Assembly (NCBI GenBank): GCA_965250155.1
Contig: OZ252291.1
Span: 708,583-772,582, forward strand
Reading direction: 5' to 3'
DNA from: Gemmatimonadales bacterium
Lineage (GTDB): Bacteria; Gemmatimonadota; Gemmatimonadetes; Gemmatimonadales; GWC2-71-9
Length of the DNA: 64,000 nucleotides
In this document: positions 29,775-54,277 of the stretch, one piece after another
How positions within the stretch are numbered: position 1 is the first letter of the stretch
How the letters are laid out: each line of letters opens with the position of its first letter
The notes under the pieces: model-generated
Seen by the model: only the letters and a program-made list of their open reading frames with translations
Database searches by the model: none
Told to the model about the DNA's origin: nothing
Made by a program: the position numbers and the translations under genes

Positions 29775-29897
29775 CTATGCCTCCTGAAGCTGCGTTCTTC
29801 GATTTCGAGTGGGCCGGGGGCGTAAGATAACCGTCGTTCCCCGGGCTGTCGCCCCGGGGTTAGCTCTGGCAGCCGGAGGGTGAGGGGTGCGGAGGAC

Positions 29898-30587: not shown

Positions 30588-30731
30588 GCTGGGGTCCGTG
30601 CGAGAGTCGGAGGGAAGATAAGCCGCGTGCCGGGATTCTGGATGCCCAAGAAAAAGGGCGGCTCCCAAAGGAACCGCCCTTGTACACCTCTGTCTCTCTT
30701 TCAGCTACCTCTCCCTACTATGTCGCCATCG

Positions 30732-30992
30732 CTAGATTTTCACTTTTCTGCATCCGCCCGACCCGTTTGCTTCGGCGCACGTGCCGTCTGCGTTGAAGAT
30801 GATCCCTACACCTTGAAGATTGCCACCGATCTCCACATGGAAGGAGACGTATCTCCGCTCAGGGTTCGAGAGGTCGACCACGCCCGTTAAGTCAACCCTG
30901 TCCACCAAGACTTCGAACTTTCCGTCATCTTTGATGTTCATGTGCTTGATCCCGCTGACCTTGCCCTTCAGTTTGAACTCGAATAAACCCAA
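30732..30992 (-). CDS. hypothetical small Lys-rich protein
   Basis: 86 aa ORF in a locally less GC-rich stretch. No signal peptide or recognised domain. Confidence 0.35.
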   Translation of the reverse strand: MGLFEFKLKGKVSGIKHMNIKDDGKFEVLVDRVDLTGVVDLSNPERRYVSFHVEIGGNLQGVGIIFNADGTCAEANGSGGCRKVKI

Positions 30993-38643: not shown

Positions 38644-38832
38644 CTAGCGCCTCAGAAACCGCTTCAGATTCCGCAGGTAGTAGCTCAACCCAAGCGCCGC
38701 AATGCCGAACGAGATTCCCAGAACGAGCAGCGCCACGCTGCCGTTGCCCCAGAACGCCAACAGCATCCAAACGCCGAGTCCGGCGCAGAAGAAAATGGCC
38801 GTTGCGATGAGGAAGCGGTGAAAGCCGATCAT
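38644..38832 (-). CDS. small two-TM membrane protein
   Basis: 62 aa with two hydrophobic helices. ATGA overlap with the ctaB stop. Confidence 0.5.
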   Translation of the reverse strand: MIGFHRFLIATAIFFCAGLGVWMLLAFWGNGSVALLVLGISFGIAALGLSYYLRNLKRFLRR

Positions 38833-39701
38833 ATGCGCGATCCCATGAGGATCAGGAGCAAGGGCAAGTAGGCTAGGGAGTATGTGAAGACACGGCGTGC
38901 TTTCGCCATGGTACAGTGCCTCACGGCGGAGAAACTGGCGTACAGAAAGGCACCGGACAGCGCCATCGCCCCCACGAAGTACGCCGTACCGGCCATGCCC
39001 ACGATCGTCGGGGTGAGGCTCACCGGCACGAGCGCGGCAGCGTAGAGTGTGGAGTACCCGAAGGTCATGCGGCCGTCCGGATCCCCCACGCTCAAGATCT
39101 TGAATCCGGCGCGGGCATAGTCGTCACGATACATCCAAGCGAGGGCCAGGAAGTGGGGCAGCTGCCACAGAAAGAGGATCCAGAACAGCACCCAGACCTC
39201 ACCGCTCAACGTTCCCCGCACCGCCGTCCACCCACCAACGATCGGCAAGGCCCCCGGCACTGCCCCCACGAGTGTCGCTATCGACGTGCGCTTTTTCAGG
39301 GGCGTATACACGAAGGCGTACGACATCAGAGTGGCCGCTGCGATACCGGCGGTGAGGATGTTGGCGAAAGCACCCAGATACGCCACACCAGCTACCCCCG
39401 TCACCCAGGCAAAGGCACTCGCCGCCGCCACACTGAGGCGTCCCGCCGGGACCGGCCGGCCTCGGGTCCGGTGCATGAGGGCATCGGCCTCCCGCTCGCT
39501 AACCTGGTTGAGGGCGTTTGTGCCCGATGCGACCAGCACCGTTCCCACCAGCACGTGGAACAACACCATAGCCTGGTGCGCCTCCGGCCCCGCGAGCCAG
39601 AATCCCGCCGCGGCCGTGAGCATCACCATTACCACGATCCTGGGCTTTGCCAACTCGGCAAAGTCATGAAGCTGGAATCTGTCTAAAGAAAGCTTTACCA
39701 A
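38829..39701 (-). CDS. ctaB: protoheme IX farnesyltransferase (heme O synthase)
   Basis: UbiA-family motifs NALNQVSEREADALMHRTRGRP and YRDDYARAG in a multi-TM protein. Confidence 0.9.
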   Translation of the reverse strand: MVKLSLDRFQLHDFAELAKPRIVVMVMLTAAAGFWLAGPEAHQAMVLFHVLVGTVLVASGTNALNQVSEREADALMHRTRGRPVPAGRLSVAAASAFAWVTGVAGVAYLGAFANILTAGIAAATLMSYAFVYTPLKKRTSIATLVGAVPGALPIVGGWTAVRGTLSGEVWVLFWILFLWQLPHFLALAWMYRDDYARAGFKILSVGDPDGRMTFGYSTLYAAALVPVSLTPTIVGMAGTAYFVGAMALSGAFLYASFSAVRHCTMAKARRVFTYSLAYLPLLLILMGSRI

Positions 39702-39973
39702 ACGTACTCCGTGAGCACGGCCACTATTATGACGATAGTTAACGGCAAAGGCGCAATGGCGAATATCCGCATCCTGTTGCCCTCAAACTTCAAATGCATG
39801 AAGTACAGCGCTACCAGGAGCGCCTTCCAGATGGCAAGCACGAGCAGGACGAGCAGCTGAATCTCCTTCGACCAGGGGAGGAAAGCCACTCCCAGCTCGA
39901 CGACGGTGAGCACCAACAGATAGGCCCAAATCGTCCAATACTTCGGTTGTGTGTGCGCCACTCCGTCGGACAT
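39695..39973 (-). CDS. cytochrome c oxidase subunit IV family protein
   Basis: 92 aa from MSDGVAHTQPKYW, with three TM helices and the pattern YFMHLKFE. Confidence 0.7.
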   Translation of the reverse strand: MSDGVAHTQPKYWTIWAYLLVLTVVELGVAFLPWSKEIQLLVLLVLAIWKALLVALYFMHLKFEGNRMRIFAIAPLPLTIVIIVAVLTEYVW

Positions 39974-39990
39974 AGATCCTCCCAGCCTGC

Positions 39991-40650
39991 TCAAACGAGA
40001 TAGACGATGGTGAACAAGATTATCCAGACCAGATCCACGAAGTGCCAATACAGGCCGACCACCTCAACTCCGCGATGATCTTCCTTCGTATACGCGCCTC
40101 TGTAGGCCTTCCAAGTCACAAAGCTCATGCAGATGACGCCCATGGTGACGTGAAAGCCATGGAATCCCGTCATGGTGTAGAACGACGAGCCGTAGACCCC
40201 CACAGACACCGGCAACAAGCCTTCGGCCGCTCGCTCCGCCAGCTCGCTCCCGGGACCGTACCCCGAAGGCAAGAATCCCGCGTGAACGAGATGGGTGTAC
40301 TCGTAGACCTGCACGCCGACGAAGGCCGCACCGATCGCAACGGTGGCCAGCAGGTACAGTTTGAGGAGGCGCTGGTCGCCGTCTTGAATCGCGGCGAACG
40401 CCTTCACCATCGTCACGCTGCTACAGATCAGGAGGAACGTGTTGACCGCAGTGAGCGGAACGTTGAGGATCTGTCCCGGAGCGCCCCACTGCTCGGGGCT
40501 GCCGAAGCGCAGAATGATGTACGATCCGATCAGGGCCGTGAAGAACAGCACTTCCGACCCCAGGAAGACCCACATGCCCAGCTTCTCGCTGTAGACATCC
40601 GCGCCGATCTCGCGTCGGGCCGGTGGACTCATCAAGGCAGGGTGAGCCAT
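39991..40650 (-). CDS. ctaE: cytochrome c oxidase subunit III
   Basis: Motifs FLGSEVLFF, TGFHGFHVTMG and YWHFVDLVWI. Confidence 0.9.
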   Translation of the reverse strand: MAHPALMSPPARREIGADVYSEKLGMWVFLGSEVLFFTALIGSYIILRFGSPEQWGAPGQILNVPLTAVNTFLLICSSVTMVKAFAAIQDGDQRLLKLYLLATVAIGAAFVGVQVYEYTHLVHAGFLPSGYGPGSELAERAAEGLLPVSVGVYGSSFYTMTGFHGFHVTMGVICMSFVTWKAYRGAYTKEDHRGVEVVGLYWHFVDLVWIILFTIVYLV

Positions 40651-40664
40651 ATTTCTCGTCCCTC

Positions 40665-42425
40665 CTATGCGCCGGCCGCAGCCGAATCGACGTCAGATAC
40701 CAGCTTGCGGGTTTGCGGGAGGAAGTCCTCCTCCACCAGCGGCGAGCTGTACTCGTAGGGACCGCGATACACCGTCGGTACCTTGGCAAAGTTGCCATGG
40801 GGCGGCGGAGAGGGAACCGTCCATTCCAGCCCGTTGGCATCCCACGGGTTCTCGGCAGCCTTCTCGCCCTTGAACCAGCTCATGATGAAATTCACCACGA
40901 ACAGTATTTGCACAATCAACAGCAACAACGCACTCACCGTAATGAACCTGTTGAGCGGGGCGAGCGACTGTAGGAATTCGTATTGCGAGGGGTCGTAAAT
41001 GCGTCGCATGTGTCCGCTGATGCCTAGATTGTGCATCGGGAAGAACGTCAGGTTGTAGAAAAGGAAAGTCAGCCAGAAATGGATCTTGCCCAGGGTGGCG
41101 TTCATCATCCGGCCGAACATCTTCGGGTACCAATATGTCACCGCCGCAAAGATGGCGAAGAGGCTTCCGCCGAACAGTACGTAGTGGATATGAGCCACGA
41201 TGAAGTAGGTATCGTGGATGTAGATGTCCACAGGCGTGGCAGCCATGAAGATTCCGCTCAGGCCGCCAATCACGAACATCGCCACAAACCCGACCGCGTG
41301 GAGCATCGGTACGTGGAAGCGAATGTTCCCCCGCCACATCGTTCCCATCCAATTGAACACCTTGATAGCCGACGGCACCGCGATGATCATGGTGGATATC
41401 ATGAACGTCATGCCCAACGTGGGATTCATGCCGCTCTGGAACATGTGGTGGCCCCACACGACCCATCCCAGAAAGGCGATGGAGATGAGCGCGAACACCA
41501 TCGAGTAGTAACCGAACACCGGCTTGCGCGATCCGTTCGCAATGATGTCCGAGACCATGCCCATCGCCGGCAGGATGAGGATGTAGACCTCAGGGTGCCC
41601 GAAGTACCAGAACAGGTGTTGCCAGAGGATCACTTGGCCGCCGTCCGTCCAATCAAAGAAGTGCGTCCCGATAGTCTGGTCGAAGAAGAGCATGATCGCC
41701 GCCCCCGAGAGGATGGGGATGGCAAGCAGCACAAGGATCGCCGTGACGAAGAGTGACCAGATCGACAGTGGCATCCTGAACCAGGTCATCCCGGGAGCCC
41801 GCAGGTTTACCACCGTCGTGATGTAGTTCACGGCACCCAAGATCGACGCTAGACCGAGGATCGCCAGGCTCAGCAGCCAGATTTGTTGTCCCCCCCTTAC
41901 GCCGGTCCATTCGGGATCCGCGCTGAGCGGCGCGTACGCCGTCCAGCCCGCAGCCGCGTGGCCGCCTTCGACGAAGAAGCCTGCCATCATCAAGATCCCG
42001 GCAGAGAAGGCAATCCAGAACGACGCCATATTGAGTCGCGGAAATGCCATGTCCGGCGCGCCGATCTTGAGTGGGATCAAGAAATTCCCGAACACGCCGA
42101 CCAGCAGCGGCATGATGGCGAAGAACACCATGATCGTGCCGTGCATAGTGACCAGCGAGTTATAGAATTCGGGAAGCAGGATCCCGTCGGGCGCCATGGT
42201 CTCGGGAAGCAGCTGCCCCGCCGGGAGCGGCCGGTCCGGAAATCCGAGTTGCCATCGGATCATCATCGCCATCAACCCGCCGAACAGCAGGAACACAAAG
42301 CTCATCAGCAGGAATTGAATGCCGATGATCTTGTGGTCGGTCGAGAAGATGTACTTTCGCAGGAAAGATAGCTCGTGGGCTTCCACGTGCGCTGCGGGTT
42401 CCAAAGAAACCGCGGAAGTCGCCAT
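40665..42425 (-). CDS. ctaD: cytochrome c oxidase subunit I
   Basis: Motifs WYFGHPEVYILILP, GHHMF, FVIGGLSG and VAHIHYVLFGG. Confidence 0.95.
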   Translation of the reverse strand: MATSAVSLEPAAHVEAHELSFLRKYIFSTDHKIIGIQFLLMSFVFLLFGGLMAMMIRWQLGFPDRPLPAGQLLPETMAPDGILLPEFYNSLVTMHGTIMVFFAIMPLLVGVFGNFLIPLKIGAPDMAFPRLNMASFWIAFSAGILMMAGFFVEGGHAAAGWTAYAPLSADPEWTGVRGGQQIWLLSLAILGLASILGAVNYITTVVNLRAPGMTWFRMPLSIWSLFVTAILVLLAIPILSGAAIMLFFDQTIGTHFFDWTDGGQVILWQHLFWYFGHPEVYILILPAMGMVSDIIANGSRKPVFGYYSMVFALISIAFLGWVVWGHHMFQSGMNPTLGMTFMISTMIIAVPSAIKVFNWMGTMWRGNIRFHVPMLHAVGFVAMFVIGGLSGIFMAATPVDIYIHDTYFIVAHIHYVLFGGSLFAIFAAVTYWYPKMFGRMMNATLGKIHFWLTFLFYNLTFFPMHNLGISGHMRRIYDPSQYEFLQSLAPLNRFITVSALLLLIVQILFVVNFIMSWFKGEKAAENPWDANGLEWTVPSPPPHGNFAKVPTVYRGPYEYSSPLVEEDFLPQTRKLVSDVDSAAAGA

Positions 42426-42459
42426 TGTTATTCCTTACGTCGAAGTGTTCTTACCCTCG

Positions 42460-43134
42460 CTACTCCTCGTCGGCCGCCACGGTCCTGTCCGACAGCCACT
42501 GTTGGTAATCTTCCGCCAAGTGGACGATCACCCTGGCCCGCATGAGATAGTGACCCAGACCGCACAGCTCGGCACAAGCAATCTCGTACTCCCCTACTTC
42601 CGTCGCTTCGAACCACACCTTGATGTCCATACCCGGCACCGCGTCCTGCTTGACGCGGAACGCAGGGACGAAGAATGAGTGTATCACGTCTTCGGCAATC
42701 AGCTGCAGCTCCACAGGCCGGTTCACCGGAATGTGAAGCTGGTTTCTCAGCGTGAAATCGTCGCCGGTCCCGAGCTGCCCATCGGGACCCCGATAAGTGA
42801 AGTTCCACTCGAACTGCTTGGCATGGACTTCGTACGGGATGGCGTTCGGCGGAATGCTGTTCCGGCCCCTGACGTGATTCCACACCCCGCCGCTCATGAG
42901 TCCGATGATTACCAGCGTCACAGCCGGAACCGCAGTCCAAACAATCTCGGCCCTTATGCTTCCTTCGATGTATTGGGCCTTGCGGCCCGGCCGGGCCCGA
43001 TACTTGATCGCGAACACAACCAGCCCGACTTCGACCACCACAAACGCTATACCGGTAATGACGAGAATGACGTAATACAAAAAATCGATATCACCGGCGA
43101 ACGTGGACGCACTGGATGGTAGAATCCAACTCAT
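42460..43134 (-). CDS. ctaC: cytochrome c oxidase subunit II (no fused cytochrome c domain)
   Basis: Two TM helices with CuA ligands VIHSFFVP and CAELCGLGHYLM. The protein ends about 30 aa after the CuA motif. Confidence 0.9.
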   Translation of the reverse strand: MSWILPSSASTFAGDIDFLYYVILVITGIAFVVVEVGLVVFAIKYRARPGRKAQYIEGSIRAEIVWTAVPAVTLVIIGLMSGGVWNHVRGRNSIPPNAIPYEVHAKQFEWNFTYRGPDGQLGTGDDFTLRNQLHIPVNRPVELQLIAEDVIHSFFVPAFRVKQDAVPGMDIKVWFEATEVGEYEIACAELCGLGHYLMRARVIVHLAEDYQQWLSDRTVAADEE

Positions 43135-43146
43135 GCCGGAATCTCC

Positions 43147-43902
43147 TCAGCCGCCGAACGTGAAGTGCAGACTCGCCGAGCCGTCAGCTGCCATCGTGAC
43201 TTCGCCCGACTGCGTACCGAACGTTTCGTGCCAGGCCTCGACCTGGTAGGTCCCCGCCGGCAACCCGCCGATGGTGAACGAGCCGTCGGCAGCAGATGTT
43301 GCGAAGTAGGGATGCTCCACCACGCCCACGTACGCGTTCATCCACCCGTGCACGTTGCACTCCATGGGAATCATGATTTCGGGCGTGGCGAAACTGCGCC
43401 GCGATGTCATTCCCACGCGCGGCTGGCTGATATTGAAGCCACGGTTTTCGGTCGGGACCGCCTTGATGTTGTGAAGCAGCGGGTCGCTGTTGGTGATTTC
43501 CAGAGTCTGGCCCACCATCACCCCCACCACTCGAGGCGAGTAGAGGCATCCGTTTTGGTCTATGGTTGCGGCTTCACTGGGCTCCGGATACGGCCCGCCG
43601 GGCAGTCCGCCCACGATGCGGATGAACACATTTGCCAATTTGCCGTCCGTCACCACCACAATCGGGTCCGTGGGTCCGTCGCTGTGTTTGGCGGCGCAAT
43701 CCGGTTCCTCTGCCATGTCGATGGCCGGGTTCGTTGGCACGCTGCCGGCAAAACTGATTACACCTGTGATACTGCTGTTACCCAGCGGCGCCGCAGATGC
43801 CGCGGCACCACCGCTCCCACCCGAGCCCCCGTCGCCCCCACCACACGCGAGAAACGCGAACAAGCACGAGGTTACCCAAAAACGTCGCATCTTTCCTCCC
43901 AA
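43147..43902 (-). CDS. cupredoxin-like (type 1 copper) lipoprotein with C-terminal carboxypeptidase-regulatory-like beta domain
   Basis: Lipobox FLACGGG. Putative ligands are LLHNI ... ECNVHGWM (C-x2-H-x2-M, as in amicyanin). The C-terminus ADGSFTIGGLPAGTYQVEAWHE fits the regulatory-like beta domain. Confidence 0.6.
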   Translation of the reverse strand: MGGKMRRFWVTSCLFAFLACGGGDGGSGGSGGAAASAAPLGNSSITGVISFAGSVPTNPAIDMAEEPDCAAKHSDGPTDPIVVVTDGKLANVFIRIVGGLPGGPYPEPSEAATIDQNGCLYSPRVVGVMVGQTLEITNSDPLLHNIKAVPTENRGFNISQPRVGMTSRRSFATPEIMIPMECNVHGWMNAYVGVVEHPYFATSAADGSFTIGGLPAGTYQVEAWHETFGTQSGEVTMAADGSASLHFTFGG

Positions 43903-43914
43903 TAGAGAACGATT

Positions 43915-45510
43915 CTATGCCCCGCGTTCCCGTCGCTGGGCGCGCCAGACGATGCCGAATCCAAGTCCTGCACTCAGCACAACAGCAACGATTGGTGCCA
44001 CAAACACGCGAGGCGGTGTCGGCACATCCAAATAGATCGCATACCAGGCACTGATCGAGCCGCGCACACCGTCCTCACCGGCGGTGCCGTCTGCGGCAAA
44101 GAAACCGATCGGCAACGGCTCACCCGGCGTGAATGGGACGGCACCGCTCGGGTCAGCCGGGGCCAACACCCGCATGAACTGCACCTGCCACTGGCCATCC
44201 GCAAATGTAGCCGAATGTGCAACCTGAGGCGCCCCGGCGATGGGCGCGAACGAACCCATTCCGGTAGCCGTGCCCTCTCGAACCCGATCCGGCGAGCTGG
44301 TCCACTGCCACATGTACACCGGGTGCCGCGGGTCGCCGCCCATAAAGAAGGGTAACTCCAATCCCTCGGGCGGGTCGAGCGGGAACTGAATTCCAATCCG
44401 GTCGGGACCCTGCTCCCCGACGTGGGGCGCATCGACATCTGGGAGCGTCTCGACGATGCCCTGGAAGAATGCGTCCCATTCCGGATCGGGACTTCGGGAC
44501 GGATCGTTCCACGTGAGCTTCACGGTCAGGTTCTGGTCGTCGTGCGCGGCTCGCACCCAAATGCCGTCCACCGTGGGCGCGAACCACCGTGGCTTGATAG
44601 TAATCTGACCGACCATCGGGATGTAATACGGTTCGACGTTGTCCCACAGCGGATCCTCCGGACCGGACGGCAACGCCCCGTCAAACCGCGCCGCACGCAC
44701 CACGTCGCGAGGCTGGGGCGCCTCGTCGGGCGAAAGACTCAGCACGTACTGCGCAACCCGCCAAAGCTGCTCGTCGGTAATGATTCCAGCGTCTATGACA
44801 TCACTGTTGGAGGGCATCGGTGTTCCATCCAACCCCGTCCGCATCCGGAGGTAGATGTCGTCGACCGTACCGCCGCCGTTGAAATTCCAGTTTTCCGAGA
44901 GATCGGCTGCCCGAACCGGGAACCCCCAGTCGTCGGTCAACTCCGGGGCGGAGTTCCCATCGCCGCGGCCCTCATCGCCATGGCAGCGGAGGCATTCCAG
45001 CTCATCCACAAACACGCGCCGCCCTTCCTCGAGGTCTGCTTCGGAGGGCCGCCCGGGCTTGCGCCCTACACTGATCGGCTCGGGCGGGGCGCCGTCGAAG
45101 AATCTCGAAAACGTCTTGATATACGCGATCACGTCATCCCGCTCGCCGCCGCTCAGCTTGTCAGCCCACCCCGGCATAGCCGTGCCAGGCATTCCATTGT
45201 CGATGACGGCGCGCATATCGTCATCCGTAGGCAACTCGCCGCTCGCAGTCGTTCTCACCTGGTAGACGGCCGTCGTGAAGTCGCGCGGTCGCGGCAACAT
45301 GAACGCCGCTGCCTCGCCGTCTCCGGCACCCGTGTCTCCGTGACACCCGGCGCACCATTTCTCGTAGAGCTGCTCGCCACGGTCTAGGTCTTGGGCAAGG
45401 ACGGAGGGGGGAGCAGGGAGGAGGAACGCCCCGGCCAGGAGCAGGAAGGCCGCGCACGGCAAGACTCCTCCCACCTCCCACCTCCCACCTCCCTTGACCG
45501 GCCGGATCAC
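43915..45510 (-). CDS. diheme cytochrome c fused to an ethylbenzene-dehydrogenase-gamma/DOMON-like (EB_dh) domain
   Basis: CAGCHG and CLRCHG, followed by IWVRAAHDDQNLTVKLTWND...DRIGIQFP. The GTG start at 45510 has AAGGAGAG upstream and overlaps the upstream stop (GTGA). Signal peptide ...SVLA/QDL. Confidence 0.7.
   Translation of the reverse strand: MIRPVKGGGRWEVGGVLPCAAFLLLAGAFLLPAPPSVLAQDLDRGEQLYEKWCAGCHGDTGAGDGEAAAFMLPRPRDFTTAVYQVRTTASGELPTDDDMRAVIDNGMPGTAMPGWADKLSGGERDDVIAYIKTFSRFFDGAPPEPISVGRKPGRPSEADLEEGRRVFVDELECLRCHGDEGRGDGNSAPELTDDWGFPVRAADLSENWNFNGGGTVDDIYLRMRTGLDGTPMPSNSDVIDAGIITDEQLWRVAQYVLSLSPDEAPQPRDVVRAARFDGALPSGPEDPLWDNVEPYYIPMVGQITIKPRWFAPTVDGIWVRAAHDDQNLTVKLTWNDPSRSPDPEWDAFFQGIVETLPDVDAPHVGEQGPDRIGIQFPLDPPEGLELPFFMGGDPRHPVYMWQWTSSPDRVREGTATGMGSFAPIAGAPQVAHSATFADGQWQVQFMRVLAPADPSGAVPFTPGEPLPIGFFAADGTAGEDGVRGSISAWYAIYLDVPTPPRVFVAPIVAVVLSAGLGFGIVWRAQRRERGA
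45467..45494. repeat. tandem heptamer CCTCCCA x3 plus one imperfect copy (TGGGAGG on the coding strand)
   Basis: Copies at 45467-73, 45474-80 and 45481-87, then CCTCCCT at 45488-94. It lies in codons 6-15 (KGGGRWEVGG) of the cytochrome gene. Confidence 0.9.
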
Positions 45511-47080: not shown

Positions 47081-47084
47081 AACG

Positions 47085-48839: not shown

Positions 48840-50154
48840 CGCGCGAGAAGAAAGGCAGACGTTTCGAGAAATCCACCGGCATATTGCGGCGCACCTCCCG
48901 CATCAGTTCGGCGGTAACCTCGGTGTGCCCCTCGCGCCGCGCGTAATCCTCCAGCCGTTTCACGACCACGCCGCGTACAAACGAGGGGATGCGTTGAATC
49001 CGCGCCTCAGCCTCATCCGACCACTGCAATTTGGCGGTGACCACCGCCCCATAGGTCACGGCGCGCGAGGTGACGAGCGGACGAGTCTCGTCCGGCTCAT
49101 AGGCACAGGAAGAATCTTCCGCCATGTAGTCGCCGCTCGAGCTGTAAGCCCGGGCACGACACCCACCACAAATCGCTCGGTATTCACAGCGACCGCACTT
49201 TCCGCCTAGCGCTCCCCGGCGCAGATCGTGAAACAGCTCCGAGTTGTTCCACACCTCGGCGAACGACGACTCACGGAGATCGCCGGCCGGGAGCGGCATA
49301 TAAGGACACGCCGTGAGCTTGCCGTCTGGTGTTATGCGCCCGTACTGCACGCCGCACGGGCAGCGGGTGGCATAATTGAGAATCGGAGACTCCGGAGCGC
49401 GCTGGTGCACCAGCCGCATGAAATGCGGTGCACACTTGGCTCGCACCATCATTCGCCCCATGTACTCGATATGAAGGTCCACGAGCTCGCCCAACGAATC
49501 CTCGTATTCCTCCGGCGACAACTCCGCCATCTTAGCGCCGCGCCCCGTGGAAACCACGAAATACGCGTTGAACGACACGGCGCCCTTCTCGGCGGACCAC
49601 GCAACCAGTCCAGGCAGCTCGCGACGGTTCCCCTTGGTGAGCGTGGTTTGTATGACGAAATCGAGACCGTGCACTACCAACCTGTCCACTGCAGCCAGCG
49701 TCGCATCGAGCGAACCGTGGCCGTGCCGGAAGCGGTCGTGATACTTCACGTCGAGCGACTCGACACTCACGGCAACACCGGTCACGCCGGCGTCCTGTAA
49801 CGCGGCGATTTTCTCGGAGGTGAGCAAAGTGCCATTGGTGCCTACGACCACTGTAGCTCCACCCTTCGCCGCATGCGAAGCTATCTCCGAGAGATCCTCA
49901 CGCAGCAGGGGCTCGCCGCCCGACAGGATAAACATGGGATTGGGATTGAGGGCGAGAATCTCGTCTGCGATGCGCAGGCACTCGTCGGTAGACAGCTCAT
50001 CGTCGGCGGATTCGGAGGGGCCCGCCGAGATATAGCAGTGCGCACACTGGAGATTACACCGGCGCGTGAGATTCCACGCGACAACATGGGGCAAGTAGTT
50101 GCCCGCTTGGCGATCACCGGCCGGCGCCTCTCCCAACGCCGCGAGTGACGTCAC
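48832..50154 (-). CDS. radical SAM/SPASM enzyme of the NirJ/AhbC/AhbD type with C-terminal PCP_red-like domain
   Basis: VVAWNLTRRCNLQCAHCY, ILSGGEPLLREDL and the SPASM Cys cluster GKCGRCEYRAICGGCRARAY. The C-terminus reads WSDEAEARIQRIPSFVRGVVVKRLEDYARREGHTEVT. Confidence 0.8.
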   Translation of the reverse strand: MTSLAALGEAPAGDRQAGNYLPHVVAWNLTRRCNLQCAHCYISAGPSESADDELSTDECLRIADEILALNPNPMFILSGGEPLLREDLSEIASHAAKGGATVVVGTNGTLLTSEKIAALQDAGVTGVAVSVESLDVKYHDRFRHGHGSLDATLAAVDRLVVHGLDFVIQTTLTKGNRRELPGLVAWSAEKGAVSFNAYFVVSTGRGAKMAELSPEEYEDSLGELVDLHIEYMGRMMVRAKCAPHFMRLVHQRAPESPILNYATRCPCGVQYGRITPDGKLTACPYMPLPAGDLRESSFAEVWNNSELFHDLRRGALGGKCGRCEYRAICGGCRARAYSSSGDYMAEDSSCAYEPDETRPLVTSRAVTYGAVVTAKLQWSDEAEARIQRIPSFVRGVVVKRLEDYARREGHTEVTAELMREVRRNMPVDFSKRLPFFSRDD

Positions 50155-52139
50155 TCGTCTCCTGTTTTCAGCAACTTTTCGACCGCTGCCTTGGCGTCAG
50201 CCACCGACACTGTTTTAAAGTCAACGGGACAGGCCGACGCTTTTTCCTCTATATCCCTTATGGGACACCTGGTGACCCCGGACGCCTTCGCCTCTTCGAT
50301 AAATTGCCGCATCTCCCGCGACAGTCCATCTCCACCCTCGGCTTCCGCACGAATCTGCTTGGCGCGCAGCTCCCGGAACATCCCCATCATTGTCTCCGCA
50401 TCGAACTCGTCCGCCTCGATCATCGCCTGTTTGTTCTCGTCCATGACCGAAGTGGTGACGCGCCACATCTCATGACCACTGGCGAATTTCTCCACCGCAT
50501 TGCGGGCCAGCGGACGGGCGATCAAGGGAACCGTTCTGAGGCGCTCGAAAGCTTCGACGGTCCAGACAGTGGAGTCTGCCACTTTACGTTCGCGCGTCGT
50601 CATGTGACCGGTCATGGGGCACTTTACGTCGACCACGGCCCCCGCGATTTCGCTGTCTGCCTCATTCCCCAGCACCAGCGTTTTGGCCATCTGCTCCTCG
50701 GCCTTGATTTCGGCACGAGCCAGCTCCTCTGCGTCACCGACGCCCATCAGCAACTGCATGTGAGTCGGCAACAACTTCCGGATGGCCTCGTCCAACCATT
50801 TGTTCGTCACCAGGTCGGCGCCGTGCTCAATGGTGTACTCCTCAACCGCGCGGCGCGCTATCCCCTGTGCGAACGGAGGCACGCGCTGAATTCGCACCTC
50901 GGCGTCCGGGGCCCACGGAATTCCCTCTTTGCCGTCCTCTTCGAGCCAGGGAATGTCCTCGGGCCTTACACCGACCGTCCCGGTAACCAGCAGATTGCAC
51001 GGGGCGAGTCGCAGCAGGTTCTCTACCTGAGAGCCCATCTCCGTTCCATCGATCCGGTGTGCGCCGTGTCGCCCCACGATCAACAGGCTTGGTTGAATCT
51101 CCTCGACCCACTGCAGAATGACTTGGAACGGTTTGCCTATGAGAATCTGCGTTTCGAACCGAACATCGGGAAACTCTTTTGCGATCGCCTCAGCACGCTT
51201 GATGTTCGCTTGGCTGAGCTTCAGGAGTCCCTTGTCGATGATGTTGTTGTGAAGCTCCTCCTGCTCTTCGAACTTGAAGACCTTGGACGCCTTCTCGGAG
51301 AGTACATCCTTGATGTTGTTGAAGACGGCGTGATGATATTCGACGTCGAACGCACTGCAAACGTATACCATCGCATCAAAGTCGCGGGCAAGTTCCAGAG
51401 CGACTCTCATCGTCCTGTAGCTGTACGCGGACCCGTCGACGCAAACCATGAACTTGCCGCGACGCAGTGGCTTGTCGTTGCGGATGATGAGCATGTCCTT
51501 TTCAATGCGCCTTGCCGCCCTGGCAACTACACCGCCAATCTGCGAGTACGGCTGGCGGCCGATGCCGTGTGCGCCCATCAATACCAGATCGTATTGCCGC
51601 CCCGACGCGCCGGCGAGTTTGTCAGCCTGATCTTCGTCCTCACCAACTATGCGTCCGTCGGCACCCAGCCGGACGTCAGAACGAACCCGCTCGCCCCCGT
51701 CGTAATTGGCCGCGATGTTCGGATCGAACCCGATCAGGCTGGGTAGTTGACCCGCTCCACGATTAACCTCGTTAACAATTTCCTCGTAGTTGATTCCCTC
51801 GAGGAGTTGTCGCCGCAACGGAACATCCGCAGCCGCGCAGCGCCGCTCCACCTGGTCGAGGAACGAGTCGGAGATGAGTTGCAGGCCCTTCTCGATCAGC
51901 TTGTCGTGGACTTTGCGCTGGCGCTTGATCTCGGCGGGCGTCTGAAATTGTGCTGGAAGGCCTGTCTCGAGCTGGCGGAATCGAACGTCGTGAAGCCGCG
52001 CCGCGTAGACATGGTTGCCGGTGATGCGCCCTTGGGATTTCGAGCACACCTCGATTGCGCGGGCCACGGCCCAATCGGAGCATTGGGAGTTATCAACTGG
52101 AACGAGAACTTCACTGTACATACCCCCGCCCTTCGGCAA
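50151..52139 (-). CDS. tandem universal-stress-protein domains fused to two PCP_red-like domains
   Basis: Usp patterns VLVPVDNS...DLVLMGAHG and FMVCVDGS...SLLIVGRHG. The PCP_red-like copies are at aa 407-455 and 525-570. The C-terminal tail carries CPIRD...ACP. Confidence 0.7.
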   Translation of the reverse strand: MPKGGGMYSEVLVPVDNSQCSDWAVARAIEVCSKSQGRITGNHVYAARLHDVRFRQLETGLPAQFQTPAEIKRQRKVHDKLIEKGLQLISDSFLDQVERRCAAADVPLRRQLLEGINYEEIVNEVNRGAGQLPSLIGFDPNIAANYDGGERVRSDVRLGADGRIVGEDEDQADKLAGASGRQYDLVLMGAHGIGRQPYSQIGGVVARAARRIEKDMLIIRNDKPLRRGKFMVCVDGSAYSYRTMRVALELARDFDAMVYVCSAFDVEYHHAVFNNIKDVLSEKASKVFKFEEQEELHNNIIDKGLLKLSQANIKRAEAIAKEFPDVRFETQILIGKPFQVILQWVEEIQPSLLIVGRHGAHRIDGTEMGSQVENLLRLAPCNLLVTGTVGVRPEDIPWLEEDGKEGIPWAPDAEVRIQRVPPFAQGIARRAVEEYTIEHGADLVTNKWLDEAIRKLLPTHMQLLMGVGDAEELARAEIKAEEQMAKTLVLGNEADSEIAGAVVDVKCPMTGHMTTRERKVADSTVWTVEAFERLRTVPLIARPLARNAVEKFASGHEMWRVTTSVMDENKQAMIEADEFDAETMMGMFRELRAKQIRAEAEGGDGLSREMRQFIEEAKASGVTRCPIRDIEEKASACPVDFKTVSVADAKAAVEKLLKTGDE

Positions 52140-52261
52140 TGTTGGTGGGTTCCACCAAAAACCAGACTTGGAGGCCGCCTCACGGCACTAGATTGACCTG
52201 ACCTGCTCCGCCCGATTTTGCGCGCGATTATATAGCCCTCGGACCATCTGTCAAGACCGTT

Positions 52262-52507
52262 TCACGGCACGAGTTGCTTTCCGTCGCCATCGAAAACCGT
52301 GAGAGCGTCAACCGGACAAATCTCACACGCTCGAAGGAGTCTCTCGCGCTCTACCGACTCGGGATGCTCGCCGAACACGGCGATGTCATCAGCATCCAGC
52401 TGGAACCCCTCCGGCGCCTCGGACACGCAATCTCCGAAGCCAACGCAGAGACCTCGGTCGATTTGGATTCTCAGCCCTGCGATCGTGCGCTCGTCAATCT
52501 CGGACAC
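52262..52507 (-). CDS. single-cluster ferredoxin
   Basis: 81 aa with CVGFGDC ... CEICP (a CxxFxxC...CP pattern, suggesting 3Fe-4S or a 4Fe-4S cluster with a non-Cys ligand). Confidence 0.8.
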   Translation of the reverse strand: MSEIDERTIAGLRIQIDRGLCVGFGDCVSEAPEGFQLDADDIAVFGEHPESVERERLLRACEICPVDALTVFDGDGKQLVP

Positions 52508-52948
52508 CTACATCGCCTCCAGACCCAGATCGGCACGGGCTTCATCCATGACGGCGGGAGTAATCTCGGCAATCCCGTGTTCGGCCGCCCACTCCACATA
52601 AATCTTCTTGACCATCCCCCGAACGAACTTGGGCACCCTGGTCAGCCGTTCCTCGCTTTCGGCGCTCCAACGCACGCCGCCGGGTCCGCCGGGTGCGGCA
52701 TCCTCGAACGCGTCTTCCCGACCGATCATGGAGCGGCGCGTGAGTTCCATGGGCTGCTCGTCCAGCGTCCGCCCTCCAATCTGCACACCGAGGGCCCCCA
52801 CCAACTGCGTTTCCATGGGATTCGCCAACATCGCTACCTTGTACCCGCACTTCGGACAGCTAAACGATGCGCCAAATGTTCCGTCGCCGGGTTCTTGCCT
52901 CTCCTCGAACGTCATCTGCTCGTCGCAACCGACGCATAGGAACTTCAT
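52508..52948 (-). CDS. zinc-ribbon + PCP_red-like domain protein
   Basis: CVGC...CPKC at the N-terminus. The C-terminus reads VRWSAESEERLTRVPKFVRGMVKKIYVEWAAEHGIAEIT. It abuts the ferredoxin start. Confidence 0.6.
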   Translation of the reverse strand: MKFLCVGCDEQMTFEERQEPGDGTFGASFSCPKCGYKVAMLANPMETQLVGALGVQIGGRTLDEQPMELTRRSMIGREDAFEDAAPGGPGGVRWSAESEERLTRVPKFVRGMVKKIYVEWAAEHGIAEITPAVMDEARADLGLEAM

Positions 52949-52985
52949 GCCAACGCTCCCAAAAACGGTGATCGAAGGGACAACA

Positions 52986-53828
52986 TTACCGGACGCACCC
53001 CCAAAAGGCGTCTACCAGGCCGGGCGTATCACAGCTCGCCGGCCCGGCGCCCGGCGTGAACGGAACGCGCGCCAGCAGGGGCACGCCAAACTCCTCAGAC
53101 AGGTCGTTGCCCGCCGTTCCATCGAACAACGCACGCAGCGCACCACACTCATCACATCGATAACTGCTCATGTTTTCCACGATCCCGAGGAGGGGTATGC
53201 CGGCTTCCGACGCCGAGCACATGGTTCGAGCGACCGATCTACGAGACTCCTCGCTGGGGATCGTGACGACGAGGGCACCGGTCAGGTTGGGAACCATCTG
53301 CTTGAGATCCACACCGCCGTCCGCACCGGGAGGCAGGTCGACCAGCAGCAGGTCAAGGGCTCCCCACACCACGTCGCTCAGGAACTCTCTCAGCGTACCG
53401 GTCTCCAGCACACCCCGCCACACAAAGCGCTCGGTGGTCGGCTCACGCCAACGCAGCGGTTGGCTTTCCTCCAGGAGCAAGTCCGTCGACACCACACGAA
53501 CGCCGACCGTACCTATGGCTGGTTCGATGCCGTCTTCGGTGACGCGCAAGGGGCCGCTCACCGCCAGAAGTCTCGCCACGGTGGGGCTGCGCAGGTCGGC
53601 GTCCAGAACACCCACTCCCTGTTCGAGACGTGAGGCCAGGCCGGCTGCCAGAGTCGCCGTCAGATGGCTCTTGCCGACGCCGCCCTTGCCGCTCATCACG
53701 GCCACAACCTGTCGCACGGATGCCAGTCGACGACCCACTCTCTCACGCTGGGCTACCACCTGCGCGTACAACTGCGACCGATCTTCGCCCCCGACGTCGT
53801 GATAGGTGCGGAAACTCATAGATCCCAT
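52986..53828 (-). CDS. Mrp/NBP35 (ApbC)-family Fe-S cluster carrier ATPase
   Basis: Deviant Walker A SGKGGVGKS, LLLVDLPPG and ENMSSYRCDECG (CxxC). Confidence 0.85.
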   Translation of the reverse strand: MGSMSFRTYHDVGGEDRSQLYAQVVAQRERVGRRLASVRQVVAVMSGKGGVGKSHLTATLAAGLASRLEQGVGVLDADLRSPTVARLLAVSGPLRVTEDGIEPAIGTVGVRVVSTDLLLEESQPLRWREPTTERFVWRGVLETGTLREFLSDVVWGALDLLLVDLPPGADGGVDLKQMVPNLTGALVVTIPSEESRRSVARTMCSASEAGIPLLGIVENMSSYRCDECGALRALFDGTAGNDLSEEFGVPLLARVPFTPGAGPASCDTPGLVDAFWGCVR

Positions 53829-54244
53829 CCAGCCCGTGCGAGCATCCAGAGGTTGATCGTCACGACCACGATCGCCGCCATGTGGAAACCAGGCGGTGCG
53901 CGACTATCGGCGGCCGCGAAAAACGCCCCTTCGATCAAGAACGGGAGCCGAAGACCGTGGATCGGCCATATCACGCGGGCAAACCACACGTTACGCCACC
54001 TATACAGCCCAACGAACACAAGTCCGGCCACGAAGGCGCCGACCCCGAGCCAAAACCAGGCACGGACTCCGGTGGGCACCCCACCGCCCCCCATCATCAC
54101 ATACGCCGCCGCCTCGTAGAGGATGGCAACGTGCAGGTACACGAACGCCGCTTGGCGAAATTTCGCCACGCGAGCGTCAGGCCAATCCTGTTTTAGTATG
54201 AACCCTGCCATCGCACCACAACAATCCACCCCAACGCCACGCAT
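53816..54244 (-). CDS. hypothetical integral membrane protein
   Basis: 142 aa with 3-4 hydrophobic helices. It is the first gene of the minus-strand string. No family recognised. Confidence 0.45.
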   Translation of the reverse strand: MRGVGVDCCGAMAGFILKQDWPDARVAKFRQAAFVYLHVAILYEAAAYVMMGGGGVPTGVRAWFWLGVGAFVAGLVFVGLYRWRNVWFARVIWPIHGLRLPFLIEGAFFAAADSRAPPGFHMAAIVVVTINLWMLARAGWDL

Positions 54245-54277
54245 GGCAAGGGCCTATTGCGTTAGTTTGCTAGACCC

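Follow-up and report, generated by a model that had tools for sequence, protein, structure and literature searches.

A 64,000-nucleotide window of a Gemmatimonadota bacterium genome carries 17 co-directional genes, in which iron-sulfur, radical SAM and PCP_red proteins are encoded upstream of a cytochrome bd-like membrane protein, c-type cytochromes and an aa3-type oxidase. The locus raises the question of what the upstream genes do and how closely they are tied to the respiratory genes that follow. An earlier note had suggested that they may make or insert a modified tetrapyrrole for the bd-like protein, or mature it in some other way. The cluster is best read as a three-module respiratory supercluster comprising module A (g01-g06), module B (g07-g11) and module C (coxBACD plus heme O synthase).

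Cluster layout

All 17 minus-strand open reading frames (38644-54244) were present, and every gene junction quoted in the earlier note was borne out on reading the sequence (Table 1). Minus-strand ATGA joins g01 and g02 (53816-53819) provided that Mrp starts at Met 53819, the g03 stop abuts the g04 start (52508/52507), GTGA joins g05 and g06 (50151-50154), and g06 and g07 overlap by 8 nt (48832-48839). A 4-nt gap (47081-47084) separates g07 from g08, provided that translation of this diheme cytochrome begins at ATG 47080. TAGTG at 46286 forms the g08/g09 junction and GTGA (45507-45510) the g09/g10 junction, the latter with g10 starting at GTG 45510; 12-nt gaps precede g11 and coxB. The largest spacer is 122 nt (52140-52261), or 140 nt with the g05 start placed by its conserved sequence MY..VPV at ATG 52121.

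The cluster ends upstream at the divergent HmuY-family gene, its true neighbour on that side, which adjoins it in approximately 25 related loci. Downstream, the minus-strand run extends by two more reading frames (36987-38546 and 35803-37131), the first of which has a homologue in one related locus only (L004).

Transcription as one continuous unit is improbable. The cluster probably comprises more than one transcription unit, since a conserved, perfect sigma-70 promoter lies between the ferredoxin and Usp genes. The pattern TTGACA-N16-18-(C/T)ATA(C/A)T was kept upstream of the Usp-PCP_red gene in approximately 40 Gemmatimonadota loci. The Usp and radical SAM genes remain on the bd-like gene's side of this promoter. 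The 5' leader of g05 matched no Rfam family.

Table 1. Features of the supercluster, in order from the upstream boundary.
Feature	Position	Strand	Assignment	Evidence or remark
HmuY-family gene	54278..54901	+	Heme-binding protein family	Pfam HmuY 39.2 bits (cut-off 27)
g01	53816..54244	-	Small membrane protein, ~2 TM helices	Hydropathy; true start maybe ATG 54211
g02	52986..53819	-	Mrp/NBP35-type P-loop Fe-S cluster carrier	CxxC motif (YRCDECG); Pfam ParA/NUBPL 187 bits
g03	52508..52948	-	N-terminal Cys4 (zinc-ribbon or rubredoxin-like), C-terminal PCP_red	PCP_red 45.6 bits
g04	52262..52507	-	Single-cluster ferredoxin	Fer4_13/Fer4_15
Promoter	52227..52254	-	Sigma-70-type, TTGACA-16 nt-TATAAT	12/12 matches; sole sizeable spacer, upstream of g05
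g05	50151..52121	-	Cytoplasmic; two ATP-type Usp and two PCP_red domains	Pfam Usp 103.6 bits (2 stretches), PCP_red 70.2 bits (2 stretches)
g06	48832..50154	-	Radical SAM/SPASM, AhbD/NirJ2 (heme b synthase) clade, C-terminal PCP_red	Pfam Radical_SAM, SPASM, PCP_red
g07	47085..48839	-	CydA-like membrane protein, OR-N2 subfamily of cytochrome bd superfamily	Pfam Cyt_bd_oxida_I 61.6 bits
g08	46286..47080	-	Membrane-anchored diheme cytochrome c	2 CXXCH, 1 TM helix; Pfam
g09	45507..46286	-	Monoheme cytochrome c, N-terminal membrane anchor	1 CXXCH, 3 hydrophobic segments; Pfam
g10	43915..45510	-	Diheme cytochrome c plus EbdC-like (EB_dh, heme b) domain, C-terminal TM helix	Pfam Cytochrom_C x2, EB_dh 45.5 bits
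g11	43147..43890	-	Lipoprotein, probable type-1 copper (cupredoxin) domain, CarboxypepD_reg-like C-terminus	Lipobox LAC
coxB	42460-43134	-		CoxB 168.6 (cut-off 147.7)
coxA	40665-42425	-	COX1	CoxA 647 (cut-off 670.75)
coxC	39991-40650	-	COX3	
coxD	39695-39973	-	COX4_pro	
ctaB	38829-39701	-	Heme O synthase	268.7 (cut-off 210.3)
g17	38644..38832	-	Two-helix membrane protein, 62 aa	Last gene of conserved cluster

Modules B and C

Nearly all earlier domain calls were confirmed; the cupredoxin call stands as probable. The ten best PDB fold matches of g07 were all CydA, and no CydB is encoded in the cluster. The protein has approximately 13-14 helices (13 long helices in the AF2 model), and the spacing of its invariant residues H37, H147, H205, M366, E124 and Y117 agrees with that listed for OR-N2 in Supplementary Table 6 of Murali. 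Equivalents of His19, His186, Met393 and Glu107 are retained. Together, g08-g10 carry five c-type hemes (2 + 1 + 2 CXXCH); g10 also matched NCBIfam DMSO_red_II_gam at 71 bits, below the 169.85 cut-off. A natural fusion (P0121) joins a g08 homologue to the C-terminus of a CydA-like protein (36% identity, E 2e-44), which supports a physical complex formed by module B.

The sole Pfam match of g11 was the C-terminal CarboxypepD_reg, with no Pfam cupredoxin match. The protein is nevertheless probably a cupredoxin, since H144, C182, H185 and M188 were invariant among 61 homologues and a weak PDB match to the blue-copper protein 5fc9 was found. It also accompanies OR-N2 modules in other phyla.

The cluster had been thought to have a composition without characterised precedent. 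For module B the composition is already in the literature: the operon type consisting of a bd-like gene, c-cytochromes and an EbdC homologue was described bioinformatically as OR-N2 by Murali, Gennis and Hemp (2021). By its predicted composition module B thus belongs to this known, biochemically uncharacterised subfamily, in which O2 reduction is unproven (PMC10839748).

In module C, coxBACD-ctaB (38829..43134) encodes an A-type heme-copper oxidase (aa3-type) and a heme O synthase. CoxB contains COX2 with the CuA motif and lacks a cytochrome c domain. The gene that follows, g17, is conserved in 38 loci, with H5 and Y52 invariant.

Module A

The signature gene of the module is g05, for which 429 relatives were confirmed in metagenomes; GxxG-x9-G[S/G] motifs were read from its sequence. 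Among NCBIfam models, g06 scored highest against the two for heme b synthase, at 297 bits for AhbD and 293 bits for NirJ2, with full-length matches to both. Scores against AhbC, NirJ and NirJ1 were 156-186 bits and those against peptide maturases at most 143 bits, and orthologues in other lineages showed the same scoring pattern. Both leading scores fall under the curated cut-offs of 500, so assignment of g06 (approximately 300 bits) as an AhbD equivalog was rejected. Nor did the HMMs assign the upstream genes to nir-type heme d1 or PQQ synthesis, an outcome named beforehand as a refutation: NirJ scored 186 (cut-off 515) and PqqE 100 (cut-off 381), and no further nir or pqq genes are present.

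The invariant cysteines of g06 comprise CX3CX2C and nine more, an arrangement compatible with two auxiliary clusters, as in AhbD. Its AF2 model (pLDDT 82) resembles SPASM enzymes, with the PCP_red tail forming three helices. To our knowledge, a genuine AhbD requires no Usp, PCP_red, Cys4 or Mrp partner.

PCP_red, a domain familiar elsewhere from the tetrapyrrole enzyme BchB, occurs in three proteins of the module (g03, g05 and g06). The PCP_red part of g03 aligns with the extreme C-terminus of BchB (PDB 3AEK residues 470-521) and also with the stand-alone proteins 2KRU and 2L09; C5, C8, C31 and C34 of g03 were invariant in 59 sequences. The conserved cysteines of g04 are C21, C27, C61 and C64. 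Of the NCBIfam models, MrpORP matched g02 best at 186 bits, short of its cut-off of 450, followed by ApbC at 124 bits. The variable sub-block g01-g04 begins with g01, which matched no family in Pfam or NCBIfam; its homologues occur in 22 related loci as well as in L089-L096, which are NC10-like.

Linkage across lineages

The order g05-g06-g07 was invariant in approximately 73 Gemmatimonadota loci or species with enough upstream sequence. Gene order was collinear in dozens of species with proteins just 40-85% identical, and is thus conserved beyond chance. In NC10 and other metagenome lineages the arrangement was reshuffled, with the Usp-PCP_red/radical SAM pair upstream, downstream or divergent relative to CydA-like and cytochrome c modules. 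Of 24 well-flanked metagenome loci, 13 had the pair beside such modules (GC 0.40 to 0.69). Synteny of the bd-like gene with the radical SAM and PCP_red genes, a test set beforehand, was therefore upheld, and the link between module A and the bd-like gene is real.

Module A is not an obligate or exclusive partner of the bd-like protein, as shown by exceptions in both directions. Many OR-N2 genes lack the module within 10 kb, among them those of Nitrospira (L084, L085), of the Nitrospinae-like L087 and of locus L088. Conversely, module A also occurs where cox operons are its sole oxidase neighbours. The Usp-PCP_red/radical SAM pair directly follows cox operons in L093 (collinear with the end of the Rokubacteria locus L080), L094, L097, L151 and L163, and approximately 35 loci carry the module with no oxidase nearby. 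No description of g01-g06 was found in the literature searched; the block appears undescribed, and its linkage to bd-like and aa3 oxidases recurs in several other bacterial lineages.

Proposed function

A tetrapyrrole-related role for module A is plausible, given the AhbD and NirJ2 matches of g06 and the heme-biosynthesis genes that flank the module in two lineages. In Gemmatimonadota the genes found to flank the cluster are hemE, hemH, hemA, hemY, a HemQ-Rieske fusion and an HmuY-like gene. In L167 a HemY gene (234 bits, cut-off 97.85) lies directly 3' of the radical SAM gene, and in L168 a tblastn match to HemY occupies the same position. Against a heme or oxidase reading, the module's neighbours in a large clade are UbiE and a radical SAM gene of the B12-binding type, and neither oxidase nor heme genes lie close by. 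Furthermore, the AhbD homologue Gms (36% identity), which carries an additional domain, modifies lipids and not heme (PMC11214058).

The special modified tetrapyrrole of the original proposal is possible, but ordinary heme b synthesis or delivery fits the data at least as well. PCP_red outside DPOR could also simply mediate protein-protein contacts.

Module A is tentatively proposed, at somewhat short of even confidence, to be an oxygen-independent heme-finishing or hand-off machine serving the adjacent heme-rich oxidases. It would be a cytoplasmic, self-contained radical SAM system with g05-g06 as core and g01-g04 as accessories. Mrp (g02) would load the three Fe-S clusters of g06, and electrons would come from the ferredoxin g04 and perhaps also from the Cys4 domain of g03. 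The presumed substrate of g06 is a heme precursor, the most likely reaction being an O2- and H2O2-independent decarboxylation of coproheme to heme b. The BchB-type helical PCP_red domains of g03, g05 and g06 may assemble the proteins or hold the tetrapyrrole, and g05 may, through its tandem Usp domains of the ATP type, gate transfer of finished heme to the neighbouring heme-rich membrane complexes.

AhbD is documented in coproporphyrin-pathway organisms without other Ahb enzymes, as an O2-independent alternative to ChdC/HemQ (PMC13564367), and HemW offers a precedent in which a protein with the radical SAM fold serves respiratory enzymes as a heme chaperone (PMC10114771). The role proposed for module A would combine these two functions, and modules B and C would most likely be two terminal branches with common cytochrome c and cupredoxin donors.

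Organisation and boundaries of the cluster

The earlier note described 17 minus-strand genes (g01-g17) running from 54244 down to 38644. The ORF listing shows this run to be unbroken, and each of the gene junctions quoted there was found on reading the sequence (see table). The domain calls made at that stage agreed almost one for one with those of Pfam and NCBIfam. Two gaps of 12 nt were also present, and the sole large spacer, which precedes the gene for the Usp-PCP_red protein g05, measures 140 nt if that gene starts at the Met (52121) of the conserved N-terminus MY..VPV.

The upstream boundary is marked by a divergent gene of the HmuY family, a family of heme-binding proteins. Its product has an N-terminal membrane segment, and the gene is kept beside the cluster in approximately 25 related loci. 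A minus-strand ORF on the same DNA was considered as an 18th gene and rejected as spurious. Downstream, the minus-strand run continues for two ORFs, the first of which has a homologue only in locus L004 among the related loci.

Elsewhere in the window, a Ser/Thr protein kinase domain is split over two adjacent ORFs (Pfam Pkinase positions 3-149 in one and 155-212 in the next), which may reflect a frameshift, a pseudogene or an error in sequencing. A homologue of deoxyhypusine synthase (Pfam DS, 142 bits), a family unusual in bacteria, lies two genes upstream of the cluster, and a very large ORF (2066 aa) stands at the window start.

Features of the cluster, of the rest of the window and of related loci (L numbers); coordinates without a locus name are those of the window
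Feature	Coordinates	Strand	Description
g02			Mrp/NBP35-type P-loop protein, CxxC motif
g03			Four invariant Cys + PCP_red
g04			Single-cluster ferredoxin
g05			Two Usp domains with ATP-type GxxG-x9-G[S/G] motif, + two PCP_red domains
g06			Radical_SAM + SPASM + PCP_red
Junction	53816-53819	-	ATGA overlap
Junction	52508/52507	-	Stop and start abut
Spacer	52140-52261	-	Sole large spacer in cluster
Promoter match	52254-52227	-	TTGACA-16-TATAAT
Junction	50151-50154	-	GTGA
g06/g07 junction	48832-48839	-	8-nt overlap
Junction	47081-47084	-	4-nt gap
Junction	46286	-	TAGTG
Junction	45507-45510	-	GTGA
HmuY-family gene	54278-54901	+	Divergent from cluster
Rejected 18th gene	54262-54702	-	Spurious ORF opposite the conserved HmuY-family gene
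Rejected CtaA candidate	29880-30890	+	Translation looks non-coding; opposite strand encodes DUF2461
Maturation genes	16782-18827 and 28315-29774	-	CcmA, CcmB, CcmC (cytochrome c maturation system I); SCO1 + CtaG
Split kinase	56962-57507 and 57515-57994	-	Ser/Thr protein kinase domain
Deoxyhypusine synthase homologue	55470-56438	-	Pfam DS
Large ORF	1075-7275	-	2066 aa
HemQ-Rieske fusion	L002:3324-4430		HemQ/chlorite-dismutase-family domain fused to Rieske [2Fe-2S] domain
Dehydrogenase genes	L079:521-4377		PQQ-dependent dehydrogenase, periplasmic binding protein, two small cytochromes c
OR-N2 locus, Nitrospinae-like	L087:10001-21563		CydA-like protein fused to cytochrome c domain, followed by antiporter-like genes
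Tandem OR-N2 modules	L088:10001-21829		Two modules, each CydA-like + cytochromes c + cytochrome c/EB_dh protein
Oxidase-free gene set (example)	L133:7304-14095		Five genes

Transcription

A promoter sequence matching the consensus at 12 of 12 positions, on the correct strand, was found in the sole sizeable spacer; by our own estimate such a match is expected approximately 0.006 times in the region. The same arrangement (TTGACA, then 16-18 nt, then (C/T)ATA(C/A)T) was found upstream of the Usp gene in approximately 40 related loci and is kept even where the preceding gene differs. The conserved promoter indicates that g05-g17 probably form a transcription unit of their own, with g01-g04 separate and more mobile. 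The earlier note had treated all 17 genes as one supercluster; on this basis the single unit probably holds for g05-g17 and probably does not extend to g01-g04. Terminator matches within the cluster were only intragenic and at chance level (20 against 13.6 +/- 3.4 expected). No Rfam family was matched anywhere in the window, and no riboswitch or known RNA was found in the 5' leader of g05.

The bd-like protein and its cytochromes

The CydA-like protein g07 was matched by Pfam Cyt_bd_oxida_I at 61.6 bits (cut-off 26.2), and the ten best Foldseek matches of its AF2 model in the PDB were all CydA chains (E 1e-6 to 3.5e-4). The model (pLDDT 75.5) has 13 long helices plus short ones, against only 9 found by a simple hydropathy scan. 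As regards a quinol-binding Q-loop, the model has no long periplasmic loop, only short loops of low confidence at 177-189, 269-282 and 341-360. Residues H37, Y117, E124, H147, H205 and M366 are at least 98% conserved among 89 sequences and are spaced as H99, Y183, E190, H213, H269 and M430 of the OR-N2 reference row (Murali Supplementary Table 6), a mapping made by spacing and not by alignment to the reference protein. The cytochromes g08, g09 and g10 carry 2, 1 and 2 CXXCH motifs, with an EB_dh domain and an anchor at the C-terminus as further parts of g10. No Cyt_bd_oxida_II (CydB) match was obtained with Pfam within the cluster. Some relatives have the CydA-like protein and a homologue of g08 joined in one chain, as in P0121 (36% identity over 274 residues, E 2e-44), which argues for a physical complex.

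The cytochrome bd superfamily was divided into the qOR, OR-C and OR-N families by Murali, Gennis and Hemp (2021). Passages of that work describe OR-N2 as a 14-helix CydA homologue without a quinol site, often the lone CydA-like gene of an operon that 'typically' contains several cytochromes c and an EbdC homologue, and list Gemmatimonadota among the phyla bearing OR-N. The present genes agree with these passages in having a CydA homologue, perhaps of approximately 14 helices, with no CydB in the operon, in keeping the equivalents of His19, His126, His186, Met393 and Glu107 with Tyr in place of Glu99, and in encoding several cytochromes c with an EB_dh (EbdC) homologue. They differ in that radical SAM, PCP_red and Usp genes appear nowhere in the paper or its supplements, and in that the OR-N2 passages describe no fusion with an aa3 operon.

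Judged by sequence and predicted fold, g07-g10 fit the OR-N2 description, so the core of the cluster would be another member of a described but biochemically uncharacterised family: oxygen reductase activity is unproven for the whole OR-N family, and OR-N2 has never been purified or assayed (PMC10839748). The earlier note named no characterised system of this composition; g07-g10 are of the OR-N2 type already described, and the upstream genes are apparently undescribed.

Two distant OR-N2 loci differ in composition. At the Nitrospinae-like locus L087, two genes of the Proton_antipo_M family (NuoL/M-like antiporters) come after the CydA-like fusion, and then genes for a cytochrome c/EB_dh protein and for a cytochrome b. 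This gene set raises the possibility of an OR-N2 complex that translocates ions. The second of the tandem modules at L088 ends with a CarboxypepD_reg-type protein, and the radical SAM block is absent.

The aa3 oxidase operon and the cupredoxin

The operon closely resembles known A-type (aa3) coxBACD-ctaB operons, with four subunits, a heme O synthase and an intact CuA site. CoxB scored 168.6 bits with TIGR02866 (cut-off 147.7), lacks a cytochrome c domain and has a complete CuA motif (H-x34-C-x-E-x-C-x3-H-x2-M). CoxA scored 508 bits with Pfam COX1 and 647 with TIGR02891, just below the cut-off of 670.75, and the heme O synthase CtaB scored 268.7 bits (cut-off 210.3). The operon differs from the known type in being preceded by a cupredoxin lipoprotein and the bd-like module, and no ctaA was found in the cluster or among the other window ORFs scanned. 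One plus-strand ORF was considered as a hidden CtaA and rejected (see table). Replacement of heme A synthase by the upstream genes was also rejected, because CtaA co-occurs with them: locus L163 and the lineage of L080 and L093 have CtaA in the cox operon as well as the module.

In Pfam, g11 matched only CarboxypepD_reg and no cupredoxin family. Its residues H144, C182, H185 and M188 (Cys-x2-His-x2-Met) are invariant in 61 homologues, and a weak match to the blue-copper protein 5fc9 of the PDB was obtained (E 0.047). The earlier identification of g11 as a cupredoxin lipoprotein is probably right. Genes for cytochrome c maturation and for SCO1 and CtaG, which serve copper insertion into cytochrome oxidase, are present elsewhere in the window.

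Proteins of the upstream block

The block comprises the pair g05-g06 and the accessory genes g01-g04. The radical SAM protein g06 has the CX3CX2C motif (C33, C37, C40) and nine further invariant Cys; Pfam SPASM was matched at 34 bits, and the structural model resembles SPASM enzymes, with a PCP_red tail of three helices at its end. Its best NCBIfam matches, both over the full length, were AhbD heme b synthase (TIGR04545, 296.9 bits) and NirJ2 heme b synthase (TIGR04055, 293.3 bits), each with a cut-off of 500. AhbC, NirJ and NirJ1 scored 156-186 bits and peptide maturases at most 143 bits. Orthologues from five other lineages or loci gave the same pattern at 277-356 bits. Since all of these fall below the equivalog cut-off, g06 and its orthologues would form a branch of their own within the heme b synthase clade. 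Assignment of the upstream genes to a nir heme d1 or PQQ pathway, raised as a possibility in the earlier note, did not hold: NirJ scored 186 against a cut-off of 515 and PqqE 100 against 381, and no nirDLGH, nirF, nirS or pqqA-D companion genes occur among the 17.

Four known systems were compared with g06 and its partners. AhbD and NirJ2 (coproheme decarboxylase) are, like g06, radical SAM and SPASM proteins with extra clusters, and they supply its best full-length HMMs; g06 differs in its score (approximately 300 bits against the cut-off of 500), in carrying a further PCP_red domain at its C-terminus, and in its constant pairing with a Usp-PCP_red protein. AhbD occurs in coproporphyrin-pathway organisms without other Ahb enzymes and is an O2-independent alternative to ChdC/HemQ (PMC13564367). 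The HemN relative HemW is a heme chaperone for respiratory enzymes (PMC10114771) and is alike in concept, as a paralogue of a heme-biosynthetic radical SAM enzyme recruited for heme delivery to respiratory membrane enzymes. HemW differs in belonging to the HemN-like lineage (HemN/CgdH) and not to the SPASM proteins, and it has no sequence relationship to g06, for which we infer the chaperone role.

The PCP_red domains of the cluster (approximately 45 residues, helical; Pfam E-values 7e-12 to 1.5e-19) are clearly homologous to the C-terminal domain of DPOR BchB/ChlB. That of g03 aligns to BchB residues 470-521, approximately the last 50, and to stand-alone PCP_red proteins in the PDB. The cluster differs from DPOR in lacking the BchN/BchB nitrogenase-like core and BchL: matches to the BchB models covered just their final 45-60 residues and no Oxidored_nitro domain was found, and PCP_red is joined instead to Usp, Cys4 and radical SAM domains. 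The GMGT synthase Gms, which is homologous to AhbD and carries an added domain, modifies lipids and not heme (PMC11214058). Both Gms and g06 are AhbD-like radical SAM enzymes in which an additional domain probably sets the substrate; the added domain of Gms is an N-terminal lipid-binding COG4001 domain, whereas that of g06 is a C-terminal PCP_red, and Gms was taken as a caution and not as a model.

In Gemmatimonadota the Cys4 element belongs to a protein of its own (g03), and it is inserted into the Usp-PCP_red protein in NC10 and in a clade whose loci lack oxidases. This domain shuffling suggests that the parts work together. No homology of the membrane protein g01 to the DUF4149/CopD-like membrane protein of the oxidase-free clade was found (hhalign probability 0.2%).

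Linkage across genomes

At least 597 relatives were obtained when one genome per species was scanned, and 75 of the best 80 loci were from Gemmatimonadota (Gemmatimonadales and Longimicrobiales). Protein searches with the window proteins reached close relatives only, and the near relatives of g07 are annotated as Gemmatimonadetes or Gemmatimonadales; the distant contexts come from the one-genome-per-species representatives and from a metagenome scan. When all 17 proteins were searched by tblastn, the whole cluster was found to be collinear in Gemmatimonadota genomes, with protein identities of 40-90%. The g05-g06-g07 triad is invariant, and g01-g04 have at least four arrangements, in all of which they stay upstream and keep the same strand.

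In NC10 CSP1-5 (L079), genes for the Usp-PCP_red protein, radical SAM protein, TM protein, Mrp and Cys4-PCP_red protein lie directly upstream of the CydA-like gene, with no cox genes nearby and a PQQ dehydrogenase cluster in front. The position of these dehydrogenase genes, immediately upstream of the block and the OR-N2 genes, suggests that the bd-like complex may take electrons from a periplasmic dehydrogenase. The bd-like genes of Nitrospira (L084, L085) are solitary, and L087 and L088 have the cytochromes and lack the block.

The metagenomes were scanned with the Usp-PCP_red protein, the NC10 sequence being first in the query alignment, and 429 relatives were confirmed. The 80 closest to the NC10 sequence were kept and all 17 families were mapped on them by HMM; the context counts refer to these 80. 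Three contexts were seen. In the first, the Usp-PCP_red/radical SAM pair stands beside a CydA-like gene with three cytochromes, in many gene orders, the block being downstream of, upstream of or divergent from the OR-N2 module (GC 0.40-0.69; CydA-like identity to the window protein 46-64%). In the second, the pair directly follows a cox operon (L093, L094, L097, L151, L163). OR-N2 genes, block and cox genes occur together in L160 and L149, the former also with Mrp and Cys4-PCP_red genes. The third context, approximately 35 of the kept loci and a single clade, has no oxidase within 10 kb; the order is UbiE methyltransferase, B12-binding radical SAM protein, Usp-PCP_red protein, radical SAM-PCP_red protein and DUF4149/CopD-like membrane protein. 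This five-gene set is found in L107 and L114-L147. Its B12-binding radical SAM protein best matches the cyanobacterial slr0320 'PSII high-light acclimation' family, at 447 bits, below the cut-off.

Among the loci with at least 6 kb on both sides, a CydA-like gene was present in 13 of 24, cox genes only in one and neither in ten. By a rough estimate, an OR-N2 gene is expected in approximately 1% of random 20-kb neighbourhoods. The Rokubacteria loci L080 and L083, with OR-N2, cupredoxin and cox genes and no block within 10 kb, were first considered as counter-examples and then downgraded. The end of L080 (ctaA, ctaB and coxC, 59-75% identity) has a collinear counterpart in metagenome contig L093, which continues past the cox genes into Usp-PCP_red, TM protein and Mrp genes, so the block probably lies just past the fetched flank of L080.

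Synteny of the bd-like gene with the radical SAM/PCP_red genes, on which the earlier proposal depended, thus holds in Gemmatimonadota, NC10 and metagenome lineages. Because the association of block, OR-N2 and cox genes recurs through independent rearrangements, these gene neighbourhoods are good evidence for a functional link between block and oxidases, which would be neither obligatory nor exclusive.

Heme genes near the cluster

In many Gemmatimonadota the cluster is flanked by hemE, hemH, hemA, hemY, a HemQ-Rieske fusion and an HmuY-like gene. In a second lineage, the radical SAM gene of L167 has a HemY gene, above the curated cut-off, immediately after it, and HemY was matched by tblastn at the same position in L168. 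The HemQ-Rieske fusion of L002 is absent from the window and was also seen in L006, L022, L024, L026, L028, L029, L032, L055, L056, L064 and L077. Its best NCBIfam match was HemQ_actino (124 bits, below the cut-off), together with a Rieske ferredoxin, and the gene lies just upstream or downstream of the cluster in approximately 12 Gemmatimonadota genomes.

Proposed function of the block

The reading that we favour, tentatively and somewhat short of calling it probable, is that the block is an oxygen-independent system for finishing heme and handing it off, with the bd-like and aa3 modules as parallel branches. The AhbD-like g06 would finish heme b from coproheme, using Fe-S clusters provided by Mrp and electrons provided by the ferredoxin. 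The PCP_red proteins, gated by the ATP-binding Usp domains, would hand the heme to the neighbouring complexes, which together would require several b hemes, five c hemes and the heme O/A of the aa3 oxidase. Both modules would be terminal branches fed via the cytochromes c and the cupredoxin.

The observations of the earlier note were accurate and its interpretation is supported only in part. It had proposed that the block makes a modified tetrapyrrole, for example one like heme d, required specifically at the OR-N2 active site, which we regard as rather unlikely. The membership of g06 in the AhbD/NirJ family, as an equivalog of no characterised member, makes a different reaction on a related substrate plausible. 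The coupled translation of g06 and g07, the recurrence of the CydA-like linkage in many lineages despite rearrangement, and the NC10 locus, where the module adjoins OR-N2 with no cox or heme-biosynthesis genes near, also speak for it. Against it, the OR-N2 genes of Nitrospira, of the Nitrospinae-like locus and of L088 have no module nearby; the module is accompanied by cox genes only in L163 (10 kb each side) and by no oxidase in approximately 35 loci; and no sequence feature indicates a particular modification. It is similarly doubtful that the module, with Mrp, ferredoxin and Cys4-PCP_red helpers, is an unrecognised machinery tailoring or inserting the active-site heme of bd-like (OR-N) oxidases. 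If true, a dedicated cofactor-maturation system would be known for the first time in the cytochrome bd superfamily.

Less likely again is action on something other than a tetrapyrrole, either as a SPASM maturase of a protein or peptide (conceivably an oxidase subunit or one of the small membrane proteins) or as a modifier of a lipid or quinone, with PCP_red serving only as an interaction domain. The best PDB matches of the g06 model are the maturases PqqE, SkfB, SuiB and anSME, but the PDB holds no AhbD or NirJ structure, which biases the fold ranking, and peptide-maturase scores are less than half of the heme b synthase scores. Gms sets a precedent, as an AhbD homologue that modifies tetraether lipids (PMC11214058), and in the oxidase-free clade the module stands beside UbiE quinone methyltransferase and B12-binding radical SAM genes. 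On the other side, no conserved precursor-peptide gene or RRE domain was seen, the radical SAM gene of L167 is directly followed by HemY and that of L168 by a tblastn match to it, and PCP_red is otherwise known only from a tetrapyrrole enzyme.

A mainly regulatory and not biosynthetic role, as an ATP- and redox-sensing Usp/Fe-S assembly tuning the synthesis or activity of the terminal oxidases under hypoxia or stress, is improbable. It would account for the tandem ATP-type Usp domains of g05, Usp proteins being typically linked to stress and hypoxia, and for the dedicated conserved promoter, but no DNA-binding, kinase or other output domain occurs in the module, all catalytic cluster ligands are retained in the radical SAM enzyme, and a dedicated Fe-S carrier and ferredoxin suit catalysis better than sensing. 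That the adjacency is meaningless, the upstream genes being an unrelated unit inherited beside the oxidase genes, is very improbable and disfavoured by the data: an internal promoter divides g01-g04 from the rest and either partner is found without the other, but the linkage is kept through at least six gene orders and orientations across the whole range of GC (0.40-0.69) and CydA-like identity (46-64%), g06 and g07 overlap, and OR-N2 genes are found in 13 of 24 neighbourhoods where the estimate for random ones is approximately 1%.

Significance

Neither the OR-N2 module nor the aa3 operon is out of the ordinary for its known kind. The Usp-PCP_red/AhbD-like-PCP_red module and its recurrent coupling to oxidases are widespread and appear to be undescribed; searches of the open-access literature for 'bd-like' with 'radical SAM', and for PCP_red/PF08369 in this context, returned nothing relevant.

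The OR-N bd-like oxidases are regarded as the chief terminal oxidases in Nitrospira and Nitrospina and in many uncultured phyla. To our knowledge none has been purified, and their subunits, hemes and electron donors are guesses. A module that travels with these oxidases offers concrete candidate genes, namely a radical SAM enzyme of the heme b synthase clade and PCP_red proteins, and Gemmatimonas species are culturable. Should the module prove to be only an AhbD-type heme synthase, it would still be a new and widespread architecture, AhbD-like plus PCP_red with an obligate Usp-PCP_red partner, which at present is annotated just as 'radical SAM protein'. The finding bears on the heme supply of bd-type oxidases, including how heme d is made, and on how Gram-negative organisms with the coproporphyrin pathway complete heme without oxygen.
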